Assembly: GCA_043809315.1 (NCBI GenBank)
Contig: JAZDDX010000023.1
Location: 1-14,942, forward strand
DNA length: 14,942 bases
Direction: 5' to 3'
DNA from: Pseudomonadota bacterium
GTDB lineage: Bacteria > Bdellovibrionota_G > JALEGL01 > DATDPG01
Shown: piece by piece, positions 1 to 9,862 of the stretch
Position numbering within the stretch: position 1 is the first letter of the stretch
How the letters are laid out: every line of letters starts with the position of its first letter
Program-made: the position numbers and the translations under genes
Notes under the pieces: model-generated
Databases searched by the model: none
What the model was told of the DNA's origin: nothing
The model's input: the letters and a program-made list of their open reading frames with translations, nothing else

Positions 1-117
1 TAGGTTTCTCCTAACTCGTGGTCAGGCTGTTTGGAAACTAGCGTAGCGCGATTGGCGGCAAAAACCAGGGGAGTTCGACCCGGGGTGGAGTGAGCCAAGA
101 TGGCCCGCGATTTTGGA

Positions 118-136
118 AATTGGCGGGGCGGACGGG
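118..136. repeat. att site (distal copy; displaced 3' fragment of tRNA-Asp)
   Basis: Identical to 9159-9177. The reverse complement is CCCGTCCGCCCCGCCA+ATT, the tRNA 3' end including CCA. Confidence 0.95.
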
Positions 137-253
137 TTAAGAAGTCCGCCTCGTCAACGTGTTGTAGTTGTTTGTATATCATTGAAACCATTAACAATCA
201 CCCGATCAGCTTTGGAAACGAGAAGACTCTGATACCCCTGTTTGGACGTGTCC

Positions 254-272
254 CGCTGGGTAGGCTGAGTAG
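254..272 (+). repeat. Putative integrase arm-type binding sites (tandem CGCTGGGTAG / GGCTGAGTAG)
   Basis: The same motif occurs as a tandem pair at the other end of the element (9090-9109), in the same orientation, so the two pairs would flank the core in attP. Confidence 0.7.
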
Positions 273-310
273 GAGTGTCTTGCCACTATAGCTCGGTTCA
301 TCCAATATGA

Positions 311-338
311 TTGCCTAAGTATACAAATTATGTATACT
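311..338 (+). promoter_or_regulatory. sigma70-type promoter of abiEi-abiEii with overlapping palindromic operator
   Basis: TTGCCT (311-316), 16 bp, TATACT (333-338). A perfect inverted repeat AGTATACA-N5-TGTATACT (318-338) covers the -10. AbiEi antitoxins are known to autorepress through promoter inverted repeats. Confidence 0.75.
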
Positions 339-350
339 GACGGATGCGTA

Positions 351-1148
351 ATGGATAGTCGGGTAAAATCGCTCAGTGCTTTTGTGACCGATCTCCAGGC
401 CAGGGGGCGCTACACGTTTACGCTGAAAGACATTCAGAACCTAAAAGGACGGAATGGCCTCAGCAATAAGATCGCGCTTCAGCGTTTGAAACAACAGGGG
501 CGCATTGTGAGCCCCAGACGGGGCTTTTTTGTCATTGTTCCGGTCGAATACCGATCGACGGGTTCTCCTCCCATTACGTGGTTCGTGGACGATTTGATGC
601 GATATCTTGGCCAACCGTACTATGTGGCGTTGCTGTCGGCCGCTGCCCATCATGGGGCCGGCCACCAGCAACCGATGGTGTTTAAGGTCATGACGGACCG
701 GCCGATCAAACCCTCGAAGAAAGGGAGAATGCGCATCGAATTTCATGGGTCAGGGCAAATCCGAAAAATCCCGTGTGTGGAGGTGCAGACGGAAACGGGA
801 AAGATGAGCATCTCGACACCGGAGGCCACGGCTTTCGATTTGGTCCGATATGCCGCCGTGTCGGGAGGTATTGGCCATGTCGCCACCGTTCTCTCTGAAT
901 TGGGTGAGGTCATTGACGCCCAACGCCTCGGCAAACTTTGCTCGCTGTATGCTCTTCCGGAAGTGCAGCGCCTGGGATTCATTCTGGAGCGGATCGGACG
1001 AAAGAACCTGTCCGACGTTTTGGGGAAGTGGTTCTCGCGACAACGGAAACGTGAAACACCGTTAGTCGTAGAAAAATCGAGGGGCCGGGCTAAGGCCGAC
1101 TCTCGTTGGAAAGTCGTTCCGAACGAAATCCTGGATCTGGACATATGA
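351..1148 (+). CDS. abiEi: Type IV toxin-antitoxin antitoxin, AbiEi family transcriptional regulator
   Basis: N-terminal wHTH-like region (GRYTFT...LQRLKQQGRIVSPRRGFFVIVP) and family motifs YYVALLSAAAHHGAGHQQP and STPEATAFDLV. ATG 351 is preferred because ATG 330 lies inside the promoter. ATGA overlap with the next gene. Confidence 0.88.
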   Translation: MDSRVKSLSAFVTDLQARGRYTFTLKDIQNLKGRNGLSNKIALQRLKQQGRIVSPRRGFFVIVPVEYRSTGSPPITWFVDDLMRYLGQPYYVALLSAAAHHGAGHQQPMVFKVMTDRPIKPSKKGRMRIEFHGSGQIRKIPCVEVQTETGKMSISTPEATAFDLVRYAAVSGGIGHVATVLSELGEVIDAQRLGKLCSLYALPEVQRLGFILERIGRKNLSDVLGKWFSRQRKRETPLVVEKSRGRAKADSRWKVVPNEILDLDI

Positions 1149-1990
1149 TTCCCCGCGCAAACATCACCGAATGGCGGAATTCCGCTCCCTGGCCCTTGGA
1201 TGTTCAGGTGGAACAGGATCTCGTGTTGACGCGTGCGCTGGTCGAGATTTTTCGGAAACGTGTTCCACGGGAGGAGTTGGTTTTTCGAGGTGGTACGGCG
1301 ATCCATAAGCTTTTTCTTCAACCGGCCGCCCGATACTCGGAAGACCTCGATCTGGTCCAGGTCAAGGCCTCACCGATCGGCGCGGTTACCGATGCGATCC
1401 GGGAAGCGCTGGATTCCTGGCTGGGAGTTCCCAAATGGAAAGCGGGGCAGGGGCGCTTTACGCTCTTCTATCGCTTTGAAACGACGGCACAGCCCGTGCA
1501 AAGCATGCGCGTGAAGATTGAAATCAATACGCGAGAGCATTTCGACGTGTTTGGAATCGAGCCCCACAACCTGGCTGTCTCCAACCCTTGGTATTCCGCT
1601 GATGCGGACGTGCCGGTGTACGGTTTGGACGAACTCCTGGGGACAAAATTGCGGGCGCTGTATCAACGAAAGAAGGGGAGAGACCTGTTTGATTTATACG
1701 TCGCGGGTCGGCGTAAGCTCTCTACCCCCGAGCGTGTAATCGAGAGTTTTAACGCCTACATGAGGCACTCGAAGACGAGCGTTTCCCGGGCGGAGTTTGA
1801 AGCGAATCTGGCGGGAAAGCTGAAAGACCCGTTGTTTCGTGAGGACGTACCGCCTTTGCTTGCGGAAGGAACCGACTGGGACATCGAGGAGGCTGCCTCT
1901 TTCGTTTTGAAATCGCTTATATCGCAACTGCCCGGTGAACCGTGGAAGGGGAATAAGCCGACCCGAAGGGCAAAGGTCCAAGCGAAGTAG
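1145..1990 (+). CDS. abiEii: Nucleotidyltransferase toxin, AbiEii/AbiGii family
   Basis: Motifs QVEQDL, FRGGTAIHKLF, RYSEDLDL, KIEINTRE and KLRALYQRKKGRDLFDL. ATG 1145 overlaps the abiEi stop (ATGA). Confidence 0.92.
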   Translation: MIPRANITEWRNSAPWPLDVQVEQDLVLTRALVEIFRKRVPREELVFRGGTAIHKLFLQPAARYSEDLDLVQVKASPIGAVTDAIREALDSWLGVPKWKAGQGRFTLFYRFETTAQPVQSMRVKIEINTREHFDVFGIEPHNLAVSNPWYSADADVPVYGLDELLGTKLRALYQRKKGRDLFDLYVAGRRKLSTPERVIESFNAYMRHSKTSVSRAEFEANLAGKLKDPLFREDVPPLLAEGTDWDIEEAASFVLKSLISQLPGEPWKGNKPTRRAKVQAK

Positions 1991-2010
1991 TTTTCTCGCG
2001 CGACAATCTC

Positions 2011-2060
2011 CTTGCTTTCCGGATATTACGTAGTAATCAATATACAAGAATGTGTGACAC
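2011..2060 (+). promoter_or_regulatory. Conserved promoter/operator block, copy 1 (upstream of the relaxase operon)
   Basis: CTTGCTTTC-N19-AATATACAAGAATGTGTGACAC aligns without gaps to 7492-7541 (34/50 identical; 9/9 and 19/22 in the two blocks). Confidence 0.6.
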
Positions 2061-2064
2061 TGTA

Positions 2065-2317
2065 GAGATGGGTGATCTCCAAGGTCTTGGCCGTTTTGAC
2101 CCTACCCCCTCCACCTCCTTCCTGGAGGTTCACTTTGGGTTCATGACAGGCTTCATTCTTGTTTCACGGGTGGGAACTATTTGGTGAACTTCGGGAAAAA
2201 TCGTAACTATCCGAAGGGACAACCAAAAGGCCGTGTCCCTGAACTTATTTCTTCTCGCTTTTTCCGCCGACCACACTCCCCCTACCATGTAAAAAAATAA
2301 TGGGGGACTGTGGTCGG
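2065..2317. other. Hairpin-rich noncoding region; candidate oriT/origin
   Basis: Inverted repeats at 2065-2079, 2079-2090, 2113-2129, 2189-2216 and 2215-2240, plus a 16-bp stem (2267-2282/2302-2317) with one mismatch, directly upstream of a relaxase-like gene. Confidence 0.45.
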
Positions 2318-3363
2318 TGCAAGAAAGCTCGAAGGTTGAAATGGGGCACGGTGAGGGAGAGTCGGAAGGGTCAGAATCGGTAGAAAAAGGGTTGAAGATG
2401 GATACAGAGAACGAAGAAAGAAAAGAAGAGCCAGGATTGAAAAGAGGGAAGGTCGGTAAAGGGAGGCGGCTGAGTTTATCCGAGAGGGGACGGGAGATCC
2501 TCAAAACCCTGTTTTCGGTCCGGCTGATCGAACGGGATGACCTGTACCGGCTTTGGTACTGGAATCGGACGATGCGTGCTCTCCTCAAGGAAATGCAGGA
2601 GCTGGAGGAACAGGGATTAGCCACCTCTCCCCTGGGTCGCTGCCGGTGTCCTAAGGTCTGGACGTACACGGAAACCGCACGAAGGTGCATTGGTTCCGCC
2701 TGTTTTACGGGATCGATCGCTCACGCAGGAAGCGAATTGGGTCTTCCGACAAGGGCGCATCAATGCTTAATCGCCAAAGCGTTCGTGGAATGGGTGGGAC
2801 GAGGGGAACTGGAGGACCGGCGTAAAAGGCTCAACTCTTTGGTTTGGCAGGATGGGCTCAAGAGGAAGATCCATTACACGGAGGGATATGGGGGTAAATA
2901 CGTCATTCCGGACGTTTGGATTGGAGGATATGACGGAGTACGGGCTTTTTTGGAGGCGGATCGAGGAACCGAATCGATACCCAGGCTTTCGGAGTACTTG
3001 CGGAGTTACTACAGGATGTTCACCCGGGAATATCCCACCGGGTTACGACCAGCCATTATCTATGTTTGCGAGGATTGGAACCGGAAGGAACTGATTGCCG
3101 AAACATTCCAAAAACTTGAAAGCTGGGAGCGGGACCAGTTCGAGTTTTTCGGTGTCTTGCATGTGACCGAATGCGGTCCCGGACTCGATCGGGTCCTGGA
3201 TTGGGATCGGAAGCGGCGAGTTTCTCCGCCAGCTCGAGGGCCTTCCATTCCTACAGAAAAACAAAACCCCCCAAATCCCAAAATCGAGAAAATAGTTCAT
3301 ACACCGTACGGCTGGCTTGCGGATCTTACCCAGCCTCGCACGGAACATAAACGCTCATCTTGA
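2317..3363 (+). CDS. Replication-relaxation (Replic_Relax) family protein; putative relaxase
   Basis: wHTH-like N-terminus (LSERGREILKTLFSVRLIERDDL), a conserved His (AHQCLI) and a PD-(D/E)xK-like core YVIPDVWI...FLEADRGTES. The true start may be ATG 2341 or 2398. Confidence 0.72.
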   Translation: MQESSKVEMGHGEGESEGSESVEKGLKMDTENEERKEEPGLKRGKVGKGRRLSLSERGREILKTLFSVRLIERDDLYRLWYWNRTMRALLKEMQELEEQGLATSPLGRCRCPKVWTYTETARRCIGSACFTGSIAHAGSELGLPTRAHQCLIAKAFVEWVGRGELEDRRKRLNSLVWQDGLKRKIHYTEGYGGKYVIPDVWIGGYDGVRAFLEADRGTESIPRLSEYLRSYYRMFTREYPTGLRPAIIYVCEDWNRKELIAETFQKLESWERDQFEFFGVLHVTECGPGLDRVLDWDRKRRVSPPARGPSIPTEKQNPPNPKIEKIVHTPYGWLADLTQPRTEHKRSS

Positions 3364-3432
3364 TGGGCCGAAGAACAAAAGAAGACGAAAGAGCAAGTAT
3401 CTGTTACAGATTTCCAACGGAAAGGAACGACC

Positions 3433-3639
3433 TTGAACCCATCGAATGCCGTCCCCTGGAAGGGGGAAAAACGAACGAAACAGCTCTGGCTTCCGGTTGA
3501 GCCGACGCTTTATGCCGCGATCCGGGAACGGACCGAGGAGACGGGGTTCTCGACCGTTTCGGACTATGTCCGAACGTTGATTGTCAAAGACATGATCGAA
3601 GGAAAACCCATTGTCGGGGGGAAAGGACGGCGGAAATGA
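3433..3639 (+). CDS. Ribbon-helix-helix (CopG/Arc/MetJ-like) DNA-binding protein
   Basis: Strand-helix-helix pattern KQLWLPVEPTLYAAIRERTEETGFSTVSDYVRTLIVKDM. AAAGGA SD upstream of the TTG start; ATGA coupling to the next gene. Confidence 0.7.
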   Translation: MNPSNAVPWKGEKRTKQLWLPVEPTLYAAIRERTEETGFSTVSDYVRTLIVKDMIEGKPIVGGKGRRK

Positions 3640-3923
3640 AAAAAACCAAAACCTCCGAAAGCGCTCGAAATCCAGCAGGGCGGTTGTTCGCCCTTACCCG
3701 CTACCAGGACAAGGTGATCGCGGATCTCGTCCAGGCAAAAGCGGAAAAAGAAGGGTTAAGCGTGGCTTCGCTTCAGAAAAAGCTCATGTATGAGGCGCTC
3801 CACAAGGACACAGACCTCAGCAAAGCCTTTCAAGGCGCGCTATCGGAAGAAATGAAGAAGAAAGGCGGGCGAGGCGGTATTCTCCAGCGGCTGAGAAATC
3901 TGCGTAAGAAATCTTCCGGTTAG
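3636..3923 (+). CDS. Small basic protein, probable second RHH protein
   Basis: ALTRYQDKVIADLVQAKAEKEGLSVASLQKKLMYEAL fits an RHH helix-G-x-S-helix pattern. Translationally coupled to the upstream gene. Confidence 0.55.
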   Translation: MKKTKTSESARNPAGRLFALTRYQDKVIADLVQAKAEKEGLSVASLQKKLMYEALHKDTDLSKAFQGALSEEMKKKGGRGGILQRLRNLRKKSSG

Positions 3924-4462
3924 TGATTCGGACGATGACCATAATTCGCTGCACGAAAAGACTCCTTGACGAACTTGGTCTGAGGATTTCGGACCTTCCC
4001 GACGAAGGTCCTGTCGAAGGACTTCTTGGAGAATGGTACTGCAACTTGCGGCGATTCGATCGACGCAAGGTTCTCCTGTTTACGCATCCTGATACCCTGT
4101 TTTCTTTCTGGGTCCCTGGCATCAAGAAGGCCGATCTTGAAGATTTTGGAATGCTGTTCTTCACGCATCTTGCGAAAAATCTTGCCCATGAAGGGTTTCC
4201 AGAACCGGTGATCCGCCGGGCAATTGAAACCGATGAAATACGCATCGGAAAGACTTCGAGTCGAAGTGTTCTCGGCTCCATGAACGACTATGCGTACCTC
4301 AGTGAATACATGATTGCCTCGGCAGGCGGCTTGCAGCGGGCCGACATCCTCGAAATCAACAAAAAGCTAAATCGGACTCCGATGAGCGGGATTGGGATGA
4401 ATTTTGCAATCGAAGCCCTGACGAAGCGCCTCCTGGGAGGACCCGCGAAGATCGCCGGGTAG
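3923..4462 (+). CDS. DUF6933-like hypothetical protein
   Basis: IRCTKRLLD...LLGEWYCN...RRKVLLFTHPDTLF...KTSSRSVLGSMND...LNRTPM resembles DUF6933 proteins (recognised from memory). The start may be ATG 3935. Confidence 0.65.
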   Translation: MIRTMTIIRCTKRLLDELGLRISDLPDEGPVEGLLGEWYCNLRRFDRRKVLLFTHPDTLFSFWVPGIKKADLEDFGMLFFTHLAKNLAHEGFPEPVIRRAIETDEIRIGKTSSRSVLGSMNDYAYLSEYMIASAGGLQRADILEINKKLNRTPMSGIGMNFAIEALTKRLLGGPAKIAG

Positions 4463-4583
4463 ATCTGGCATTGATGGTGTGAAGAACAGACTTCATTTGT
4501 CGCGTTTGTCGCATTCGTGGCATATAGGTCCCACTTCGAACTAGCTCCCAAAGAGTTAAGTGGCTGAAACTACTAGGTTACTG

Positions 4584-4600
4584 TTGGCATAGACAATGCT
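4584..4600 (+). promoter_or_regulatory. Candidate sigma54 (-24/-12) promoter of the DGR target gene
   Basis: TTGGCATAGACAATGCT has exact GG-N10-GC spacing and is close to the YTGGCACG-N4-TTGCW consensus. An alternative extended -10, TGGTATAAC, lies at 4611-4619. Confidence 0.55.
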
Positions 4601-4647
4601 AATAAAGGGATGGTATAACGCGCAGCGCCTTAACAGGGAGAAGAAAA

Positions 4648-5262
4648 ATGTGGGTTAAACGAATCTTTGTTTTTTCAATGGTTTTGGGTCTCGGCATCGG
4701 TTGGGCTTATGCCGGTTCCATCGACCGCACAAAAAAGCTGTGTGGGTTGGTTGGAATGGATGATGAACGAATCAACGACTGTTCTCAAAAAAACGAAGAA
4801 GAGGATGCGACTCGAATTGGGAAATCGAAGTTTCGTTGGAAGTTATTGACCCGCACGATTTCAAAATCGGGTGACGTTTTGTCCTTCTATAAAGACAAGG
4901 CGAGCGGAAAGGTCTGGACCGATCCGCTCAGTATGGATTCAAAGGATGACAAAACCTGGGAAGATGCAAAGAAGGCTTGTTCGACGTACCACCCCGATCA
5001 TTCCAAAACTGGAACCACGATGGGCGACGGTTTTCCCCGCACAGCCTTCGAATTGCCATCTGCGGAGGATTATAAACTCGCGGAAGACCATGGGATTCGT
5101 GATGCGCTGGAAGATACGATGAAAGATCAAGAGGGTGATTCCAGATGGTGGTGGACCTCTTCGCCCTACGTCGATCTCGCGGAGCACTTCCGTGGCTCCC
5201 ATGGCGGCATCAGCCCCTACCCCCGTGCGTATCCATATGCCGTTCGTTGCGCCGCGCGCTAG
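4648..5262 (+). CDS. DGR target protein: exported DUF1566/Lcl-like (C-type lectin fold) protein with C-terminal VR
   Basis: Signal peptide MWVKRIFVFSMVLGLGIGWAYA. Motifs DKASGKVW, TWEDAKKAC, LPSAED, WWTSS and a terminal AVRC. The last ~35 codons align with the TR. GGGAG SD upstream. Confidence 0.9.
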   Translation: MWVKRIFVFSMVLGLGIGWAYAGSIDRTKKLCGLVGMDDERINDCSQKNEEEDATRIGKSKFRWKLLTRTISKSGDVLSFYKDKASGKVWTDPLSMDSKDDKTWEDAKKACSTYHPDHSKTGTTMGDGFPRTAFELPSAEDYKLAEDHGIRDALEDTMKDQEGDSRWWWTSSPYVDLAEHFRGSHGGISPYPRAYPYAVRCAAR

Positions 5263-5269
5263 GCGTGGG
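5157..5269 (+). repeat. DGR variable repeat (VR)
   Basis: Ungapped 113-bp alignment to 5888-6000 with 23 mismatches, 19 of them at TR adenines. G/C-only tract GCGCCGCGCGC (5249-5259) near the 3' end. Confidence 0.96.
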
Positions 5270-5297
5270 GTAGTAGTCATTTGAAGATTGGATGATT

Positions 5298-5317
5298 GTC
5301 GGGCCGAATGGCCCGAC
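5298..5317 (+). other. DGR target-recognition hairpin/cruciform downstream of VR/IMH
   Basis: Perfect 8-bp GC-rich stem GTCGGGCC-GAAT-GGCCCGAC with a 4-nt loop, 28 bp after VR. It is absent after TR and matches the geometry of the Bordetella phage BPP-1 cruciform. Confidence 0.85.
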
Positions 5318-5338
5318 GAAATCGATGCGAGGCTCCGT

Positions 5339-5716
5339 GTGGCGCGATATCAGCATTTACCGCTCTATCAATTCTGTTACGCGCTCACACGGGAACTCTA
5401 CCGGCTTCGAATCAAACTTCCGAAGACGTTGAAACATGACTTGGGGAGCACGCTCTGCTCGTCCGCTCTCCATTGTTTGAAGCTCATCATTGTGGCGAAC
5501 GGCCAGCCCGACAAAGAACCGGCTCTTCGTTCGTTGCGCCTTGAGATTGAATGTCTGTGGACCTATTCACGGCTTTTATATGATCTCCGAGGCATCAGCG
5601 CCGGAGAATTCAAGGTGCTGTCGGAAAAGCTTTCGGAGGTTGCGTCGCAAGCTCAGGCTTGGCTTCGGTGGGAACGAAAACAAAAGAGCAACATCGTTGA
5701 AAGGAAAACCGAGTAG
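5339..5716 (+). CDS. avd: DGR accessory variability determinant (Avd-like four-helix-bundle protein)
   Basis: (M)ARYQHLPLYQ...LPKTLKHDLG...RLLYDLRGIS...EVASQAQAW fits the Avd/four-helix-bundle pattern, in the usual position between VR and TR. GTG 5339 with a GAGG SD is preferred over TTG 5288, which would run through the cruciform. Confidence 0.88.
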   Translation: MARYQHLPLYQFCYALTRELYRLRIKLPKTLKHDLGSTLCSSALHCLKLIIVANGQPDKEPALRSLRLEIECLWTYSRLLYDLRGISAGEFKVLSEKLSEVASQAQAWLRWERKQKSNIVERKTE

Positions 5717-5887
5717 GTCTATGTTTCCGTCGTTGGCGGCCGGAATTTGAAGGTCTACGGATCTTCAAAGAGTGCTTCTAACGACCCACGGGAGTCCGGC
5801 CTGTTTTTTTTGAACAGGCGAAAAGTCACGAATCCAACATCCCCCGAGCGGGCCTGTTGGAGGGAGTTGAACGGGACGCCATGAATG

Positions 5888-6000
5888 CTCTTCGCCCGAC
5901 GACGATAACGCGGAGAACTTCAATGGCAACAATGGCGACATCAACAACGACAACCGTGATAATCATAATGCCGTTCGTTGCGCCGCGCGCTAGGCGTGGG
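5888..6000 (+). repeat. DGR template repeat (TR), functioning as ncRNA template
   Basis: AAC/AAT-rich copy of VR with 10 AAY codons and 29 adenines in 19 sense codons, all at codon positions 1-2, so no stop codon can arise. Confidence 0.96.
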
Positions 6001-6011
6001 ACGTGCCAACC

Positions 6012-6054
6012 CGAAGGGGGCTACGAAGAAGAAATCGCTTTGTAGTCCCCTTTG
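6012..6054 (+). other. 17-bp RNA hairpin 3' of TR, overlapping the RT stop codon antisense
   Basis: CGAAGGGGGCTACGAAG (6012-6028) pairs with CTTTGTAGTCCCCTTTG (6038-6054): 14 Watson-Crick and 3 G-U pairs on the + strand. Confidence 0.7.
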
Positions 6055-7289
6055 ATCTTCAGGCGAGCGCGTGAAATTCCAAGTTCGCGCGGAATGGCTC
6101 GGTCCTCGGTGGTGCGGTTGATGAGACGATCTAACGATGCCTTTCGCAACCGATAGGTCTGTCCGTGTCCCAGATATCCGATTCGGGAATTGATTCTCGC
6201 GAGCTTTCTTTCGAGTGCTTTGGACCGGGCTGGAAATGCAAGCGGGTGCCGGACTCCCGGCTCGGAAAACGAAAAACGTTCAAGGTCGCGAATCTCCTTC
6301 ACCCACTCCCATTTCTTTCGGGGTTTTGAGAAAATTCGCAGAGGTTGGGAAGGGTAGGATTCCTGGCGCAGGCGGTATCCCAAATATTCGATCCCTTGGT
6401 TCAAGCAAGTTAACCGCGTTTTTTTCGCATTCAAATTCTGAAATCGGTTTTTCCGGAGCCATCTGTCGATGGGGTCCGCCATCCCCTGAAGTCGATTCGG
6501 ATCGAGATCCAGCAACATGAGATCATCCATGTATCGAAGATAAGCTCCCGGTTTCAAGGTCCGGCAGATCCAGTGGTCCAATGCGTTCAAATAGACGTTG
6601 GCACCGAACTGGCTCGTGAGATTCCCGATGGGAATTCCTTGATCAACGTTTCGGTTGAACCATGTTTTTTCGGGCAGGATAAGGTTCCAATCTTCCTCCG
6701 ATCCCTTTCGAACCGCGCCGATCCGCGCATCATGGTTGTACACAATTCGAATCAGATCTCGAAGCTTGGGATCGGTCGCGGTGCCTAACAATAAATCGCG
6801 AAGAGTCGGGCGATGAATCGTGACAAAGAAAGAAGCGATGTCGAGCTGTAAAGCCCACACGGGCAAGCGGCCTCCTTGGCTCACGGACCGGACCTTCTTC
6901 TGCAGGTAGCGTAGGGCTCCGTGGGTGCCTTTCCCAATTCTGCAAGCAAAACTCGAATGAACAAACCTCCGCTCCCAAGAAGAGGTCAATCGACTTACGA
7001 TCAGATGGTGCACGATGCGATCCCGGAAATGAGCCGCAAAAATTTCTCTCGGTTTGGGGTGTTTCACCACGAAACAAACCGAAAGGAGAGGTTTGTAACG
7101 GTTCTGATGGATCTCCCGATGAAGTTTTAAGATGTTTTCACCCAACCGGGCTTCGAATGTCGTTTGGTGGAAGCTGGCCTGTTTGCCGAGGCGACAGGTT
7201 TGATATGCCGTCAATAAATCTTTGAACGTGGGCCAGGATGTGGATTGACCGGAAAGGGAACGTGTAGTGGATCGCGGCCGACTGTTCAT
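6021..7289 (-). CDS. DGR-type reverse transcriptase, oriented opposite to target-avd-TR
   Basis: KPREIFAAHFRDRIVHH, FACRIGKGTHGAL, LDIASFF, the DGR signature GIPIGNLTSQ, catalytic YLRYMDD, GIEYLGY and C-terminal SRIGYLGHGQTYRLR. The frame is open to 7484, but ATG 7289 (422 aa) best fits the RT N-terminus. Confidence 0.95.
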   Translation of the reverse strand: MNSRPRSTTRSLSGQSTSWPTFKDLLTAYQTCRLGKQASFHQTTFEARLGENILKLHREIHQNRYKPLLSVCFVVKHPKPREIFAAHFRDRIVHHLIVSRLTSSWERRFVHSSFACRIGKGTHGALRYLQKKVRSVSQGGRLPVWALQLDIASFFVTIHRPTLRDLLLGTATDPKLRDLIRIVYNHDARIGAVRKGSEEDWNLILPEKTWFNRNVDQGIPIGNLTSQFGANVYLNALDHWICRTLKPGAYLRYMDDLMLLDLDPNRLQGMADPIDRWLRKNRFQNLNAKKTRLTCLNQGIEYLGYRLRQESYPSQPLRIFSKPRKKWEWVKEIRDLERFSFSEPGVRHPLAFPARSKALERKLARINSRIGYLGHGQTYRLRKASLDRLINRTTEDRAIPRELGISRARLKIKGDYKAISSS

Positions 7290-7491
7290 CTTTGGGTTTT
7301 CTATCTCTTCAACGCAGTAGACCCAAGATTTTTGATCGGTCGTTTGCTTCTTCCACATCTGAAGTGATTGAAAAACCACAGTTTTTTCGATGCGCTGGAA
7401 TCCGTTGATGTTGAGGATGAGAAAACCAAGAAAGATAACGGTCGTGAGGGGGGTCCTTCGGGTGTGACATCTTGCCGGGTCCAAGAATCCG

Positions 7492-7541
7492 CTTGCTTTC
7501 GTAAACTAGAAATGTAAGTAATACACAAGAATATGTTACAC
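7492..7541 (+). promoter_or_regulatory. Conserved promoter/operator block, copy 2 (between divergent RT and xis-int)
   Basis: CTTGCTTTC-N19-AATACACAAGAATATGTTACAC, matching 2011-2060. Confidence 0.6.
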
Positions 7542-7580
7542 AATCCGCTAGCCGGGGAGGTGGCTACGCGATACGCGTGC

Positions 7581-7838
7581 ATGGAAGAAACTGGCGAGTT
7601 GTTCTCGAAAGGTCTAAAAAGCGTTCATTCGGTCGAAAAGTCTTCCCCGGCCGGGATCTTTGAAAACAGAATATACACGGTAGAAGACGCCGCTAGGCTC
7701 GCCAACGTCTGCTGCAAGACCATCTACAGATTGGTTGCTGCAAGACAATTGCGCGTGAAAAGATTGCCTGGCGGTCGAAGTATCAGAATCCTCGGTTCCG
7801 AGCTGATCGGGTGGATGAAAGGGGGCAACCGTGCCTAA
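7581..7838 (+). CDS. xis: Excisionase-like helix-turn-helix protein
   Basis: IYTVEDAARLANVCCKTIYRLVAARQLRVKRLPGGRSIRI is an HTH_17/excisionase pattern. It overlaps the integrase start. The start is uncertain (7533, 7560 or 7581). Confidence 0.8.
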   Translation: MEETGELFSKGLKSVHSVEKSSPAGIFENRIYTVEDAARLANVCCKTIYRLVAARQLRVKRLPGGRSIRILGSELIGWMKGGNRA

Positions 7839-9099
7839 AAAATTCGACCCGATCGCTTACAAAGGGAAAAAGACAATCGCCGTAAAAATGGACCATCCCG
7901 GAGTCTGTCAACTCTGGGATTGGGATGAGAGAAAGGGGCGTTATTTCCCCCGAACCCAGGGAAATCGTTACTACGCGTATCGGAAGGTGGGCCTCACGCA
8001 ATCTTCCAAATATCTGAGCAGCTACGAGGAAGCCAAACGATGGCGTGATTCCGGGTACCTCGTGGAAGAAGAGGAAAAAGCACGGGGACTGACGTTTGCC
8101 GAAGTGAAGGCGCGCTATTTCGAGCACCTGAAAGGCAGAGTCAAACCCTCATCGATCGAAAGCTACGAGAACAACGTCCGGCATTTGGGATTTTTTGACG
8201 CGATTCCCGTAACCGAGATCACGACAAGGACGGTGGATAGCTGGATCACCGCGATGAAAAAACCGGAATATTTAGCGACTCAGCACAGTACGCGCATCAC
8301 GTATGAGCATGACCTGAGACTGTTGAGACAGATTCTTCAGTACTACGGTGATTATGTAGATCCGGACGGCAGGTTTCAGTTGCCGATCAAGAAGCGTCAC
8401 AATACGGATGTCATCGTGGACGTCGTGAAGTATCGGGAGCGCCTGGATCAGCGGCGCTCGAAATTCATGACGAGAGAGGAGAATGAGCACTTCTTGGAAG
8501 AACTCAGGAAGCGGTCGTTCCAGTCAATGCTGGATCGTTTCGTCTACCTGGCTGCGTTCATTTATTTGAGGACAGGAGCCAGAATCGGCGAGATCTGCGC
8601 TTTAAATTGGCGTGATCTGAATCTCAAGACGGGCGCAGTTGTGATCTCGAAGACGGTTCACTTTTCGAGGAGAAAGGGGCAAGTTTCGTACGTCTCTTCC
8701 TCGACGAAGACTAAGAAAACGAGAGAGCCGGTTATTCAGGACATGGAACTTCTCCGCGAACTCAGAGAATTCCGTTTGAGTTCGGGAAGGGGCGAGGGGT
8801 TGATCTTGAGCGAAGATGGGCAAACCCCATTGGAGTATAGGTCGATCCAATTCCGGATGGATAAGGTGTTTAAGGCTCTTGCGTTGCCGTTTCGAAGCAC
8901 GCACATCCTGAGACACAGCTTTGCCACGGATTTTTTGCGCGTGACGAAGAATCCTCTCGCTCTTCAGGCCATTCTTGGGCACAGCGATTTTCGCCAGACC
9001 CAAGAGTACGCAAAGCTCACGGATGACCTCGTGAAGGATGCTTCACGGGAATACGCCAAGAGCTTTTTGAAGAAGCCGGACGAAGTTGCCGCTGGGTAA
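7831..9099 (+). CDS. int: Tyrosine recombinase / phage-type integrase
   Basis: Catalytic set: R in TGARIGEICAL, K in TKTKK, HILRH, LGHSD and Y in TQEYAK. Adjacent to the att site and tRNA. Confidence 0.95.
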   Translation: MPKKFDPIAYKGKKTIAVKMDHPGVCQLWDWDERKGRYFPRTQGNRYYAYRKVGLTQSSKYLSSYEEAKRWRDSGYLVEEEEKARGLTFAEVKARYFEHLKGRVKPSSIESYENNVRHLGFFDAIPVTEITTRTVDSWITAMKKPEYLATQHSTRITYEHDLRLLRQILQYYGDYVDPDGRFQLPIKKRHNTDVIVDVVKYRERLDQRRSKFMTREENEHFLEELRKRSFQSMLDRFVYLAAFIYLRTGARIGEICALNWRDLNLKTGAVVISKTVHFSRRKGQVSYVSSSTKTKKTREPVIQDMELLRELREFRLSSGRGEGLILSEDGQTPLEYRSIQFRMDKVFKALALPFRSTHILRHSFATDFLRVTKNPLALQAILGHSDFRQTQEYAKLTDDLVKDASREYAKSFLKKPDEVAAG

Positions 9100-9109
9100 C
9101 GCTGGGTAG
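9090..9109 (+). repeat. Putative integrase arm-type binding sites (CGCTGGGTAA CGCTGGGTAG)
   Basis: Tandem 10-mer matching 254-272. Confidence 0.7.
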
Positions 9110-9127
9110 AACCCCTTTCCGGGGTTC
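9109..9127. terminator. Hairpin between convergent int and tRNA-Asp; possible terminator
   Basis: GAACCCC-TTTCC-GGGGTTC is a perfect 7-bp stem, but the U-tract is weak. Confidence 0.45.
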
Positions 9128-9158
9128 GGTTCTCAATCATCTCAAGAAGTTAAATAAG

Positions 9159-9177
9159 AATTGGCGGGGCGGACGGG
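9159..9177. repeat. att site (tRNA-proximal copy)
   Basis: Identical to 118-136. Confidence 0.95.
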
Positions 9178-9238
9178 ACTCGAACCCGCGACCTCATGCG
9201 TGACAGGCATGCGTTCTAACCAGCTGAACTACCGCCCC
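9162..9238 (-). tRNA. tRNA-Asp (GTC)
   Basis: Reverse complement GGGGCGGTAGTTCAGCTGGTTAGAACGCATGCCTGTCACGCATGAGGTCGCGGGTTCGAGTCCCGTCCGCCCCGCCA: 77-nt cloverleaf, anticodon GTC, encoded CCA. Confidence 0.97.
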
Positions 9239-9253
9239 AATGAAAGCTGCGGG

Positions 9254-9282
9254 TTTCTAACAATGTTACGGAGGCAGGTCAA
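9254..9282 (-). promoter_or_regulatory. sigma70 promoter of tRNA-Asp
   Basis: On the minus strand: TTGACC, 17 bp, TAGAAA with an extended TG, just upstream of the tRNA. Confidence 0.65.
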
Positions 9283-9382
9283 TTTCCATTTGAACCCACG
9301 CCCAGCCAACTCTTCCGAACCCTTGAGGTTTTTCGCGTTTCCGGCTATTCCTCTCCGCTCAACAACCGGCGTGGAGGTCGAA

Positions 9383-9862
9383 ATGGCGAAGTCTTCACAA
9401 GTGATCGAAGTTTTAAACGAGGCTCTGGCGGAAGAGATCATCGCGCTCAACCAGTACTTTCTCCACGCGGAGTTGTGCGAGCACTGGGGATTCGAGGCGC
9501 TCAGCAAGCACATCAAGAAACAATCGATCGACGAGATGAAGCATGCCGAGAAATTGATGGAACGTCTGCTCTTTCTCGGCGGAATGCCGAAGTTGGAAAC
9601 GGCTCCGAAGCTCAAGATCGGGCGGACGATCGAGGAGATCTTCGCGAACGACCATGGGTTGGAAGAGATGGCGATCGCGAGCTACAACAAGTGGATCGGC
9701 GTCGCGCGCACGGCGGACGACAACGGGACCCGACTGCTCCTCGAAGAGATCCTGAAGGACGAGGAAAATCACATCGACTGGCTCGGCACGCAGCTCGATG
9801 TGATCAAACAGGTCGGCCTTCAGAACTACCTGACGAAGCAGCTCGAAGAGGCGAAGGCGTAG
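9383..9862 (+). CDS. bfr: Bacterioferritin
   Basis: NQYFLHAE, SIDEMKHAEKLMERLLFLGGMP and ILKDEENHIDWL (ferroxidase centre and heme-ligand Met). GGAGG SD before ATG 9383. Confidence 0.95.
   Translation: MAKSSQVIEVLNEALAEEIIALNQYFLHAELCEHWGFEALSKHIKKQSIDEMKHAEKLMERLLFLGGMPKLETAPKLKIGRTIEEIFANDHGLEEMAIASYNKWIGVARTADDNGTRLLLEEILKDEENHIDWLGTQLDVIKQVGLQNYLTKQLEEAKA

Follow-up and report, generated by a model that had tools for sequence, protein, structure and literature searches.

The question raised by this locus is whether a DGR whose reverse transcriptase (RT) lies on the opposite strand to its TR, and runs towards it, is a complete system, a relic or an artefact, and what such an arrangement implies for the RNA next to the TR. 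Judged from its sequence, the window (the whole 14,942-nt stretch of DNA analysed here) most likely carries a complete and probably active DGR of an inverted-RT architecture that has already been described, on an ~9-kb tRNA-Asp island of an uncultured Bdellovibrionota (Table 1).

Table 1. Features of the inverted-RT cassette and of the island that carries it; positions are those of the window.
Feature	Position	Strand	Remarks
DGR target gene	4648..5262	+	204 aa; N-terminal signal-like helix; C-type-lectin (Lcl_C/DUF1566-like) fold
VR	5157..5269	+	last 35 codons of target, its stop codon and the next 7 nt
IMH-like GC-rich 3' segment of VR	5237..5269	+	equals TR 5968-6000, no mismatch
avd-like accessory gene	5288..5716	+	142 aa from TTG 5288; ATG at 5292
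GC-rich hairpin overlapping avd start	5297..5318	+	28 nt past VR; from folding against shuffles
Upstream arm of 12-nt perfect complement	5789..5800	+	87 nt before TR
TR	5888..6000	+	adenines on + strand
17-bp hairpin with 9-nt loop across RT stop codon	6012..6054	+	T-rich stretch next on +
Downstream arm of 12-nt complement	6248..6259	+	247 nt past TR; antisense within RT coding sequence
DGR reverse transcriptase	6021..7289	-	422 aa from ATG 7289; stop codon 6021-6023
Tyrosine integrase of island	7831..9099	+	Phage_integrase E 2.4e-18 plus SAM-like N domain
19-nt exact direct repeat, left copy	118..136		island end, att-like
19-nt direct repeat, right copy	9159..9177		overlaps tRNA-Asp 3' end

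The VR and TR form a direct near-repeat with an offset of 731 nt, and the differences between the two copies are strongly adenine-biased: 19 of the 23 in the core (VR 5157-5269) fall at a TR adenine, with 30 adenines in the 113 nt (binomial p 3.2e-8; Fisher 1.8e-10), and the count is 20 of 25 over the slightly wider interval 5156-5270. Thus, 19 of the 30 core TR adenines are changed in the VR, and every adenine-type change affects codon position 1 or 2 of ORF 4648-5262. Read in the frame of the target, the TR contains six AAC and four AAT codons. The four core differences at other bases (5167, 5218, 5229 and 5235) could represent drift since the last homing event. After position 5236, VR and TR run without mismatch through an identical GC-rich end of 33 nt, beyond which (5269/6000) the copies diverge, as IMH from IMH*. 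The hairpin at 5297-5318 consists of eight G-C/A-U pairs and one G-U pair closed by a 4-nt loop (z -3.6; equalled by none of 200 shuffles), and the inverted repeat that follows the IMH in the Bordetella phage DGR is the same kind of element (Wu 2018). The system thus has the IMH/IMH*-like ends and the GC-rich inverted repeat past the VR that are expected of a DGR, all of putative function.

For the protein that carries the VR, a word-based homologue search returned only the protein itself, its 90% cluster has one member, and it has no Pfam match at threshold; an exhaustive search retrieved 49 remote homologues (E<=1e-3), and 14 of 29 aligned members of this family match Pfam Lcl_C. In the predicted structure (AF2 pLDDT 81, pTM 0.77), the best PDB match is the C-terminal domain of Legionella Lcl (8q4e_A; E 1.1e-3), and C-type lectin-like chains come next. 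The VR thus lies, as is typical of DGRs, inside the coding sequence of a target with a C-terminal C-type-lectin fold, with changes at codon positions 1 and 2.

The RT matches RVT_1 (E 3e-17) and contains the Y-M-D-D motif and an I-G-N-L-T-S-Q stretch; S-Q is a diagnostic motif of DGR RTs. All residues that are invariant across 36 relatives are kept, including D150, Y253, D255, D256 and G222-N-L-x-S-Q227. Its frame is open upstream to TTG 7484 (the database copy has 445 aa), and its best relatives are 57-68% identical. The C-terminal tail is genuine conserved protein and not read-through spacer, being kept in co-oriented relatives; any RNA 3' of the TR must therefore overlap it. A profile search of genome contigs with this RT gathered 80 relative loci, 53 of which have an A-biased TR/VR pair; at the other 27, many with the RT at a contig end, a relaxed TR/VR search gave only short low-complexity matches. 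The avd-like ORF (5288-5716) scores below the cut-offs of both relevant models, Pfam bAvd (E 2.3e-7, 31.7 bits; cut-off 40 bits) and NCBIfam DivGenRetAVD (E 4.9e-12, 46.1 bits; cut-off 80), with matches that span each model in full. Its size and position fit the avd genes of three related loci (L003, L012 and L044) that pass the Pfam cut-off.

Repeat search, ORFs and domain matches place every part of the DGR where the preliminary description had put it, with target, avd and TR on the + strand and the RT on the - strand, so that, taken in the RT direction, the order is RT-(TR)-(AVD)-(TG). The distance of 20 given there between RT stop and TR is exact (6001-6020, up to the last VR-aligned base of the TR). 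The mutated adenines sit on the + strand, and the template RNA is therefore the + transcript, again as proposed; the identification as a DGR also held, as did the point that an RT inverted and convergent on the TR requires separate transcription units for RT and template RNA. This last conclusion had already been reached in print (Schillinger 2012; Wu 2018). Separate transcription is mechanistically unproblematic, since cDNA synthesis in vitro requires no more than purified bRT-Avd and DGR RNA that was made separately (Handa 2018). A scan of 4400-7900 for sigma-70 promoters and terminators found five promoter-like sites (2.3 expected), none of them ahead of the RT on the - strand, and three terminator-like sites (4.8 expected).

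The layout was less novel than first supposed. It was described, under the name of 'inverted DGRs', in 2012 (Schillinger 2012), and the RT and template have been known as separate, oppositely oriented transcription units since then. Within rows 1-23 of the 372 in Table S1 of Wu 2018, four are inverted, and in rows 19-22 the TR end lies between -19 and +57 nt from the RT stop. The closest counterpart in that part of the table is row 19 (AMFJ01002400.1, uncultured bacterium), which is assigned to architecture B as RT-(TR)-(AVD)-AVD-(TG) with a CLec2/DUF1566 target. As in the window, target, avd and TR occupy one strand, the RT converges on the TR end, and the VR is C-terminal in a DUF1566-type target; by its table entry, it differs in a gap of 57 rather than 20 nt between RT and TR, and in an additional avd that shares the strand of the RT. 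Group 4 of DiGReF (Schillinger 2012), which is architecture D of Wu 2018, (AVD)-RT-(TR)-(MSL)-(TG), likewise has the RT opposite to TR, VR and target, and DUF1566 C-type-lectin targets. In its members (Shewanella baltica OS155 pSbal02, Vibrio sp. RC586 and Photobacterium angustum S14), the 3' end of the RT abuts or overlaps that of the TR (-19, -19 and +21 nt); the tight abutment was confirmed on the pSbal02 sequence. By contrast with the window, where avd stands alone between VR and TR without an MSL-sized gene and an integrase lies beyond the RT start, in group 4 the RT stands between avd and the TR, and MSL between TR and target. Group 4 was compared through the pairwise identity of the S. 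baltica RT, which is 32% identical to that of the window over 350 residues and no closer to it than many co-oriented DGR RTs.

Among the 53 related loci with a TR/VR pair, six have an inverted RT, and three of these (L003, L012 and L044; gaps of 3, 23 and 27 nt) match the window in both gene order and tight abutment, with TG-avd-TR facing the RT stop and a Pfam bAvd match between VR and TR. The lineages in which the layout recurs have RTs only 33-41% identical to that of the window, and the similarity between the window target and that of L044 (190 aa) is not detectable. The closest RT relatives in the genome collection, L001, L002 (Bacteriovoracaceae) and L008, at 42% identity, are co-oriented: they share with the window the RT C-terminal tail and avd, L002 also an Lcl_C target, and differ in that the TR precedes the RT, both on one strand. 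An RT phylogeny with orientation scored in relatives, which the preliminary description had suggested, was carried out and rejects a single origin of the inverted layout. That description had also stated that a common layout would count against its claim; this applies in part, as the layout proves to be documented and recurrent, yet a minority among the related loci and table rows compared.

The BPP-1 DGR (mtd-avd-TR-brt) resembles the window in its C-type-lectin target with C-terminal VR, its avd, TR and IMH-like end, its GC hairpin after the VR and its AAC-rich TR codons. All of its genes are co-oriented, whereas the RT of the window is inverted and leaves only 20 non-coding nt past the TR; in BPP-1, a 140-nt non-coding spacer separates TR and brt.

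An assembly artefact, or a phase-variable RT segment inverted by the neighbouring tyrosine recombinase, is a rival explanation of the orientation. The recombinase gene lies 540 nt from the RT start and matches, very weakly and at scores far under the cut-off, NCBIfam models of tyrosine-type DNA invertases (E 1e-4 and 2.4e-3). However, of the three inverted-repeat pairs (12-19 nt) in 5600-8000, none flanks 6001-7500; for want of such repeats on either side of the RT gene, an invertible or misassembled RT segment was rejected. The recombinase instead adjoins a tRNA-Asp gene (9162-9238, - strand), and a 19-nt att-like repeat lies 9 kb away, which identifies it as the integrase of an island. This repeat, whose right copy overlaps the 3' end of the tRNA, is the sole exact repeat of at least 11 nt that 9100-9260 shares with other parts of the window, in which an Rfam search found two tRNAs and nothing else. 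The cassette thus belongs to an island of ~9 kb that has inserted into tRNA-Asp in a Bdellovibrionota genome. As the same layout also occurs in independent assemblies and in a finished plasmid, we regard the artefact or inversion explanation as highly improbable. It is also improbable, to a lesser degree, that the cassette is a dead or decaying relic in which inversion cut the RT off from the TR. The four non-adenine TR/VR differences would fit decay, as would L012, the nearest inverted relative, whose RT is split by a frameshift over two overlapping frames, so that decay, or else a sequencing error, may affect at least one of the inverted copies. Against this stand the intact RT, avd and target genes of the window, the confinement of its adenine-type changes to codon positions 1 and 2, and the recurrence of the layout in lineages with strongly diverged RTs, each with 15-17 adenine-type differences, as well as among the curated 'putatively functional' DGRs of Wu 2018 (Table S1). 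Moreover, the hairpin at 6012-6054 pairs non-coding sequence beside the TR with conserved RT codons, and this junction looks selected.

For this hairpin, the region 6001-6070 folds with -30.8 kcal/mol (z -4.1; none of 200 shuffles folds equally well). Its right arm codes for the I-K-G-D-Y-K that is conserved in the RT tail; its left arm covers the final RT codons, the stop codon and non-coding sequence. A hairpin directly 3' of the TR is also found in L012 and in the co-oriented L001, both of which belong, with the window, to one RT clade. That of the window may serve the template RNA, as a site for Avd or as the element that sets its 3' end, or it may terminate both convergent units. In addition, the complementary 12-nt arms at 5789-5800 and 6248-6259 bracket the TR and form the closing helix in both MFE and centroid structures; a complement of this length was reached in 0 of 200 shuffles and, in a second test, in 2 of 1,500. 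When all 53 TR-bearing loci were compared with the window, a complement of 12 nt was confined to the latter; the best ones in L012, L003 and L044 are of 7-8 nt, as in shuffles.

These structures bear on a further, more elaborate reading, in which the template RNA runs ~260 nt past the TR, antisense through the 3' end of the RT, the 12-nt helix closes an RNA domain, as the upstream/downstream 'cPRT stop' duplex does in the Bordetella phage RNA, priming and Avd-binding elements lie opposite RT codons, and convergent transcription couples the levels of RT and template. The rarity of the complement around the TR and its use in both folds speak for this reading, as does the position of the hairpin directly 3' of the TR, where Avd-binding stem-loops have been reported, together with upstream/downstream duplexes of 13 bp on average in 207 of 278 Avd-type DGRs (Handa 2024 preprint, 10.1101/2023.10.23.563531). 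The coding nature of the RT tail is also in keeping with it. By contrast, the duplex occurs in a single sequence without covariation support, and its arms, at 87 and 247 nt from the TR, fall outside the 40 and 100 nt examined in the preprint. The 17-bp stem with its 9-nt loop differs from the reported tetraloop stems of ~9 bp, and the T-rich tail past it fits termination near 6060, ~55 nt after the TR. The complete reading is rather unlikely. The simpler suggestion of the preliminary description, that functional RNA 3' of the TR is antisense to the 3' end of the RT, is plausible; its 'two-input switch' and antisense interference are speculation.

For the preferred reading, a probably active DGR with a separately transcribed RT, the following course can be outlined, with the Bordetella phage system as a guide. 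Target, avd and TR would presumably be expressed on the + strand as one transcript, or two, and the RT from its own - strand transcript, convergent on the TR. RT and Avd would bind the TR-containing RNA in trans; the RNA 3' of the TR would start with the strong hairpin overlapping the RT stop codon. The TR RNA would be copied with misincorporation opposite adenines, and the cDNA would replace the VR at its IMH-like end. The outcome may be the recoding of at most ~20 codon positions on the ligand-binding face of a small secreted protein of C-type-lectin fold.

The window provides a clean and complete example of an inverted-RT DGR from the poorly sampled phylum Bdellovibrionota, on a small tRNA-integrated island. 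Slightly beyond what was found in print, the comparison indicates that the inverted layout has had repeated origins across the RT tree, and that all tight cases have the 3' end of the TR within a few tens of nucleotides of the RT stop, so that RNA past the TR must overlap RT codons. It is tempting, at long odds, to extend this to tight inverted DGRs in general: the RNA elements required by RT-Avd on the 3' side of the template, namely a stem that binds Avd, a priming site and a closing duplex, would be antisense to the last ~80 codons of the RT, making the sequence carry two codes at once, and convergent transcription would make template RNA and RT mutually limiting, a built-in brake on hypermutation with several independent origins. 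Because of the enforced overlap with RT codons, tight inverted cassettes are natural test beds for the need of DGRs for 3' flanking RNA.

Two copies of a direct near-repeat, offset by 731 nt, differ at 23 positions, of which 19 fall on an adenine of the downstream copy, although adenines make up 30 of its 113 nt (binomial p = 3.2e-8; Fisher p = 1.8e-10). Widening the repeats by one base per side gives 20 A-type differences out of 25. All A-type changes affect the first or second codon position of the target open reading frame (ORF), and, read in that frame, the downstream copy contains six AAC and four AAT codons. The downstream copy is therefore the template repeat (TR) and the upstream copy the variable repeat (VR); the four non-adenine differences are at 5167, 5218, 5229 and 5235. 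The 3′-most 33 nt of TR and VR are identical and GC-rich, with divergence beyond, a pattern that would be expected of IMH and IMH*. The reverse transcriptase (RT) has all residues that are invariant in 36 relatives, including the catalytic aspartates, and its stop codon occupies 6021–6023. ORF coordinates, profile matches and the TR/VR pair bear out the preliminary description, which had placed target, avd, TR and the TR adenines on the + strand and the RT on the − strand, with 20 nt between its stop and the TR. Its layout observation is correct in every particular, and the window holds a genuine, complete diversity-generating retroelement (DGR) with an inverted, convergent RT.

Coordinates of the DGR and its surroundings in the window, and of avd and RT in two inverted relatives
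Feature	Position	Strand	Comment
Target ORF	4648–5262	+	204 aa; VR at end
VR	5157–5269	+	Near-repeat of TR; overlaps target ORF
avd-like ORF	5288–5716	+	Between VR and TR; Pfam bAvd E 2.3e-7, NCBIfam DivGenRetAVD E 4.9e-12, both over the full model length and below curated cut-offs
Hairpin 3′ of VR	5297–5318		8 G-C/A-U pairs and 1 G-U, loop 4 nt; z −3.6
TR	5888–6000	+	Adenines on +; A-specific mismatches with VR
RT ORF	6021–7289	−	RVT_1 E 3e-17; ATG start, frame open to 7484
Island	118–9177		~9 kb; delimited by 19-nt repeat
Direct repeat	118–136 and 9159–9177		19 nt, exact; includes tRNA-Asp 3′ end
AbiEi/AbiEii pair	330–1990		Island cargo
Replic_Relax protein gene	2317–3363		Island cargo
DUF6933 protein gene	3923–4462		Island cargo
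Tyrosine integrase	7831–9099		Next to tRNA-Asp
tRNA-Asp	9162–9238	−	Adjoins integrase
L033 avd	1232–1618	−	See L035 for the source MAGs
L033 RT	43–1341	+	
L035 avd	7116–7478	−	MAGs of L033 and L035: Pseudomonadales and Woesebacteria
L035 RT	6004–7212	+	

The target has no close relatives by a word-based search, which returned the target itself alone; an exhaustive search gave 49 remote homologues at E ≤ 1e-3. Most of these are small, begin with a signal-like segment and have four conserved cysteines. Pfam Lcl_C (DUF1566) matches 14 of 29 aligned family members, and the window target itself falls below every Pfam threshold. For an AlphaFold model built from the homologue alignment (pLDDT 81, pTM 0.77), the nearest structure is the C-terminal domain of Legionella Lcl (8q4e_A; E 1.1e-3, TM 0.54 on target), and C-type lectin-like domains come next. 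DGR targets belong to this class more often than to any other.

The tRNA-Asp repeat, the adjoining integrase, a G+C content of 0.49–0.55 within the ~9-kb element against ~0.60 to its right, and the relatives of the flanking Lon protease (up to 82% identity to Bdellovibrionota-named proteins, 73–74% to Bdellovibrionales- or Oligoflexia-named ones) together show that the DGR is carried by a small integrative island of an uncultured member of the Bdellovibrionota. A ferritin-like ORF (9161–9862, 233 aa as listed) overlaps the tRNA-Asp with its 5′ end; its Ferritin domain begins at residue 82, and translation probably starts beyond the tRNA.

The best RT homologues share 57–68% identity with the window RT. 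Searching a species-representative genome collection with a profile of 36 RTs (A2) yielded 80 loci, the best at 42% identity, and a screen for near-repeats in which A (T when the opposite strand is read) accounts for 70% or more of the mismatches detected a TR/VR pair in 53. In 44 loci the TR is co-oriented and either immediately precedes the RT start or overlaps it; in three it is co-oriented and downstream of the RT, and in six it is downstream with its A-strand opposite the RT, as in the window. No pair was detected in the other 27, also under relaxed search settings. The inverted loci take two forms. In the tight form (L003, L012 and L044), target and avd precede a TR that faces the RT stop across 3, 23 and 27 nt, respectively, as in the window, with a Pfam-passing bAvd gene between VR and TR. 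In the loose form (L025, L033 and L035) the gaps are 260–367 nt; L033 and L035 have the order target, TR, avd, with avd overlapping the RT 3′ end by ~100 nt in antisense, and no avd was detected in L025. L012, from an Oligoflexia MAG, is the closest inverted relative; all 16 of its TR/VR differences are A-type, and its RT lies in two overlapping frames (5971–6426 and 6381–7244), reflecting a frameshift or else an error in sequencing. Separately, L041, from an Alphaproteobacteria MAG, has a VR (3887–4003) inverted relative to both TR (5838–5954) and RT, with 11 of 11 differences A-type, the other rare orientation variant in the literature. The RT frame of L002 (5914–7245) contains the TR (5931–6059) in its 5′ portion, and as a result the RT N-terminus matches Lcl_C weakly (E 5e-5), the match being to a pseudo-domain that the TR encodes.

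In a quick IQ-TREE tree (LG+G4) of 81 RTs, the window RT falls in a five-member clade (SH-aLRT 100) with the inverted L012, the co-oriented L001 and L002, and L008, which has no detected pair and an avd co-oriented with its RT. The inverted label requires six changes on the tree, at least five forced by well-supported branches. The AU test, applied once the tree was known to groups set by layout, rejected a single clade for all seven inverted sequences together (p = 3.5e-8) as well as for the tight subset of four (p = 2.5e-59). Inversion of the RT against the rest of its cassette, or RT exchange between cassettes, has therefore occurred repeatedly and is no one-off dead accident. Within the window's clade, a serine resolvase/invertase gene lies directly 3′ of the co-oriented RT of L001 (4322–4927); enzymes of this type could mediate recurrent inversions.

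The layout is not new, as these six of 53 related loci and the literature show. Schillinger et al. give Shewanella baltica OS155, Vibrio sp. RC586 and Photobacterium angustum S14 as inverted examples, describe the layout as rare, and conclude that a single transcription unit for RT mRNA and template RNA is not required; the MyDGR paper likewise treats opposite-orientation cases as rare, but handles them. Within rows 1–23 of the 372 in Table S1 of Wu et al., the TR is opposite the RT in four: three read (AVD)-RT-(TR)-(MSL)-(TG), with TR ends at −19, −19 and +21 nt of the RT stop, and row 19, an uncultured bacterium with a DUF1566 target and a 57-nt gap, reads RT-(TR)-(AVD)-AVD-(TG), the order found in the window. 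In the S. baltica plasmid region, a TR/VR pair on the strand opposite the RT was confirmed to overlap the RT end; the RT encoded there is 32% identical to the window RT. The layout, tight convergence included, is therefore already documented, and the window is a further example of a known architecture rather than a new one.

In the Bordetella phage DGR, cDNA synthesis requires RNA on both sides of the TR, and a non-coding segment 3′ of the TR binds Avd and permits processive synthesis (Handa 2018); the nucleotide that primes synthesis is located in this segment, base-paired to the 3′ end of the TR (Handa 2024 preprint). Predictions in that preprint for 207 of 278 Avd-type DGRs place Avd-binding stem-loops just 3′ of the TR, with upstream/downstream duplexes averaging 13 bp. 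In the window, 20 non-coding nt follow the TR. The RT C-terminal tail beyond them is no read-through spacer: it aligns to co-oriented L001 up to residue 419 and L002 up to 412, and it ends in K-x-(D/G)-Y-x-(S/A)-I, a pattern conserved throughout the family. Any RNA element reaching more than 20 nt past the TR must therefore be antisense to RT codons, so that the earlier proposal of a 3′ segment antisense to the RT 3′ end is sound as logic, and two features fit it. A hairpin at 6012–6054 (17 bp; −30.8 kcal/mol for 6001–6070, z −4.1, 0/200 shuffles) combines the RT's last codons, stop and non-coding sequence in its left arm with the codons for I-K-G-D-Y-K in its right. L012 has a hairpin in the equivalent position, also straddling its RT stop, and L001 has one in its 51-nt TR–RT gap. 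Against the proposal, a T-rich stretch follows the window hairpin on the + strand, and the hairpin may simply end the template RNA; the − strand folds too (z −3.1), and the hairpin may work both ways between convergent genes. The second feature, a 12-nt perfect complement between 5789–5800 (87 nt before the TR) and 6248–6259 (247 nt after it, within the RT), closes the fold in both MFE and centroid structures and was equalled in 0/200 and 2/1500 shuffles, but nothing comparable is seen in L012, L003 or L044. In most co-oriented relatives the TR abuts or overlaps the RT start, and thus the RNA after the TR is coding sequence there too, which argues against a long dedicated spacer being general in this RT lineage.

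Convergence on opposite strands implies separate promoters for RT and template RNA, as first proposed. Purified RT–Avd acts on separately made RNA in vitro (Handa 2018), so nothing forbids separate transcription units. A two-input switch and antisense interference are speculative possibilities. A promoter scan found no consensus promoter upstream of the RT. By eye, a sigma-70-like pair 5′ of the target (4590–4619; TAGACA, 18 nt, TATAAC), missed by the scan because its final base is not T, is a putative promoter of the + strand unit. The interest of this DGR lies in the repeated independent origin of its layout, the constantly tight junction between RT stop and TR, and the candidate RNA elements overlapping RT codons; jointly, these pose a specific, testable question, namely what length of RNA 3′ of its TR a DGR requires.
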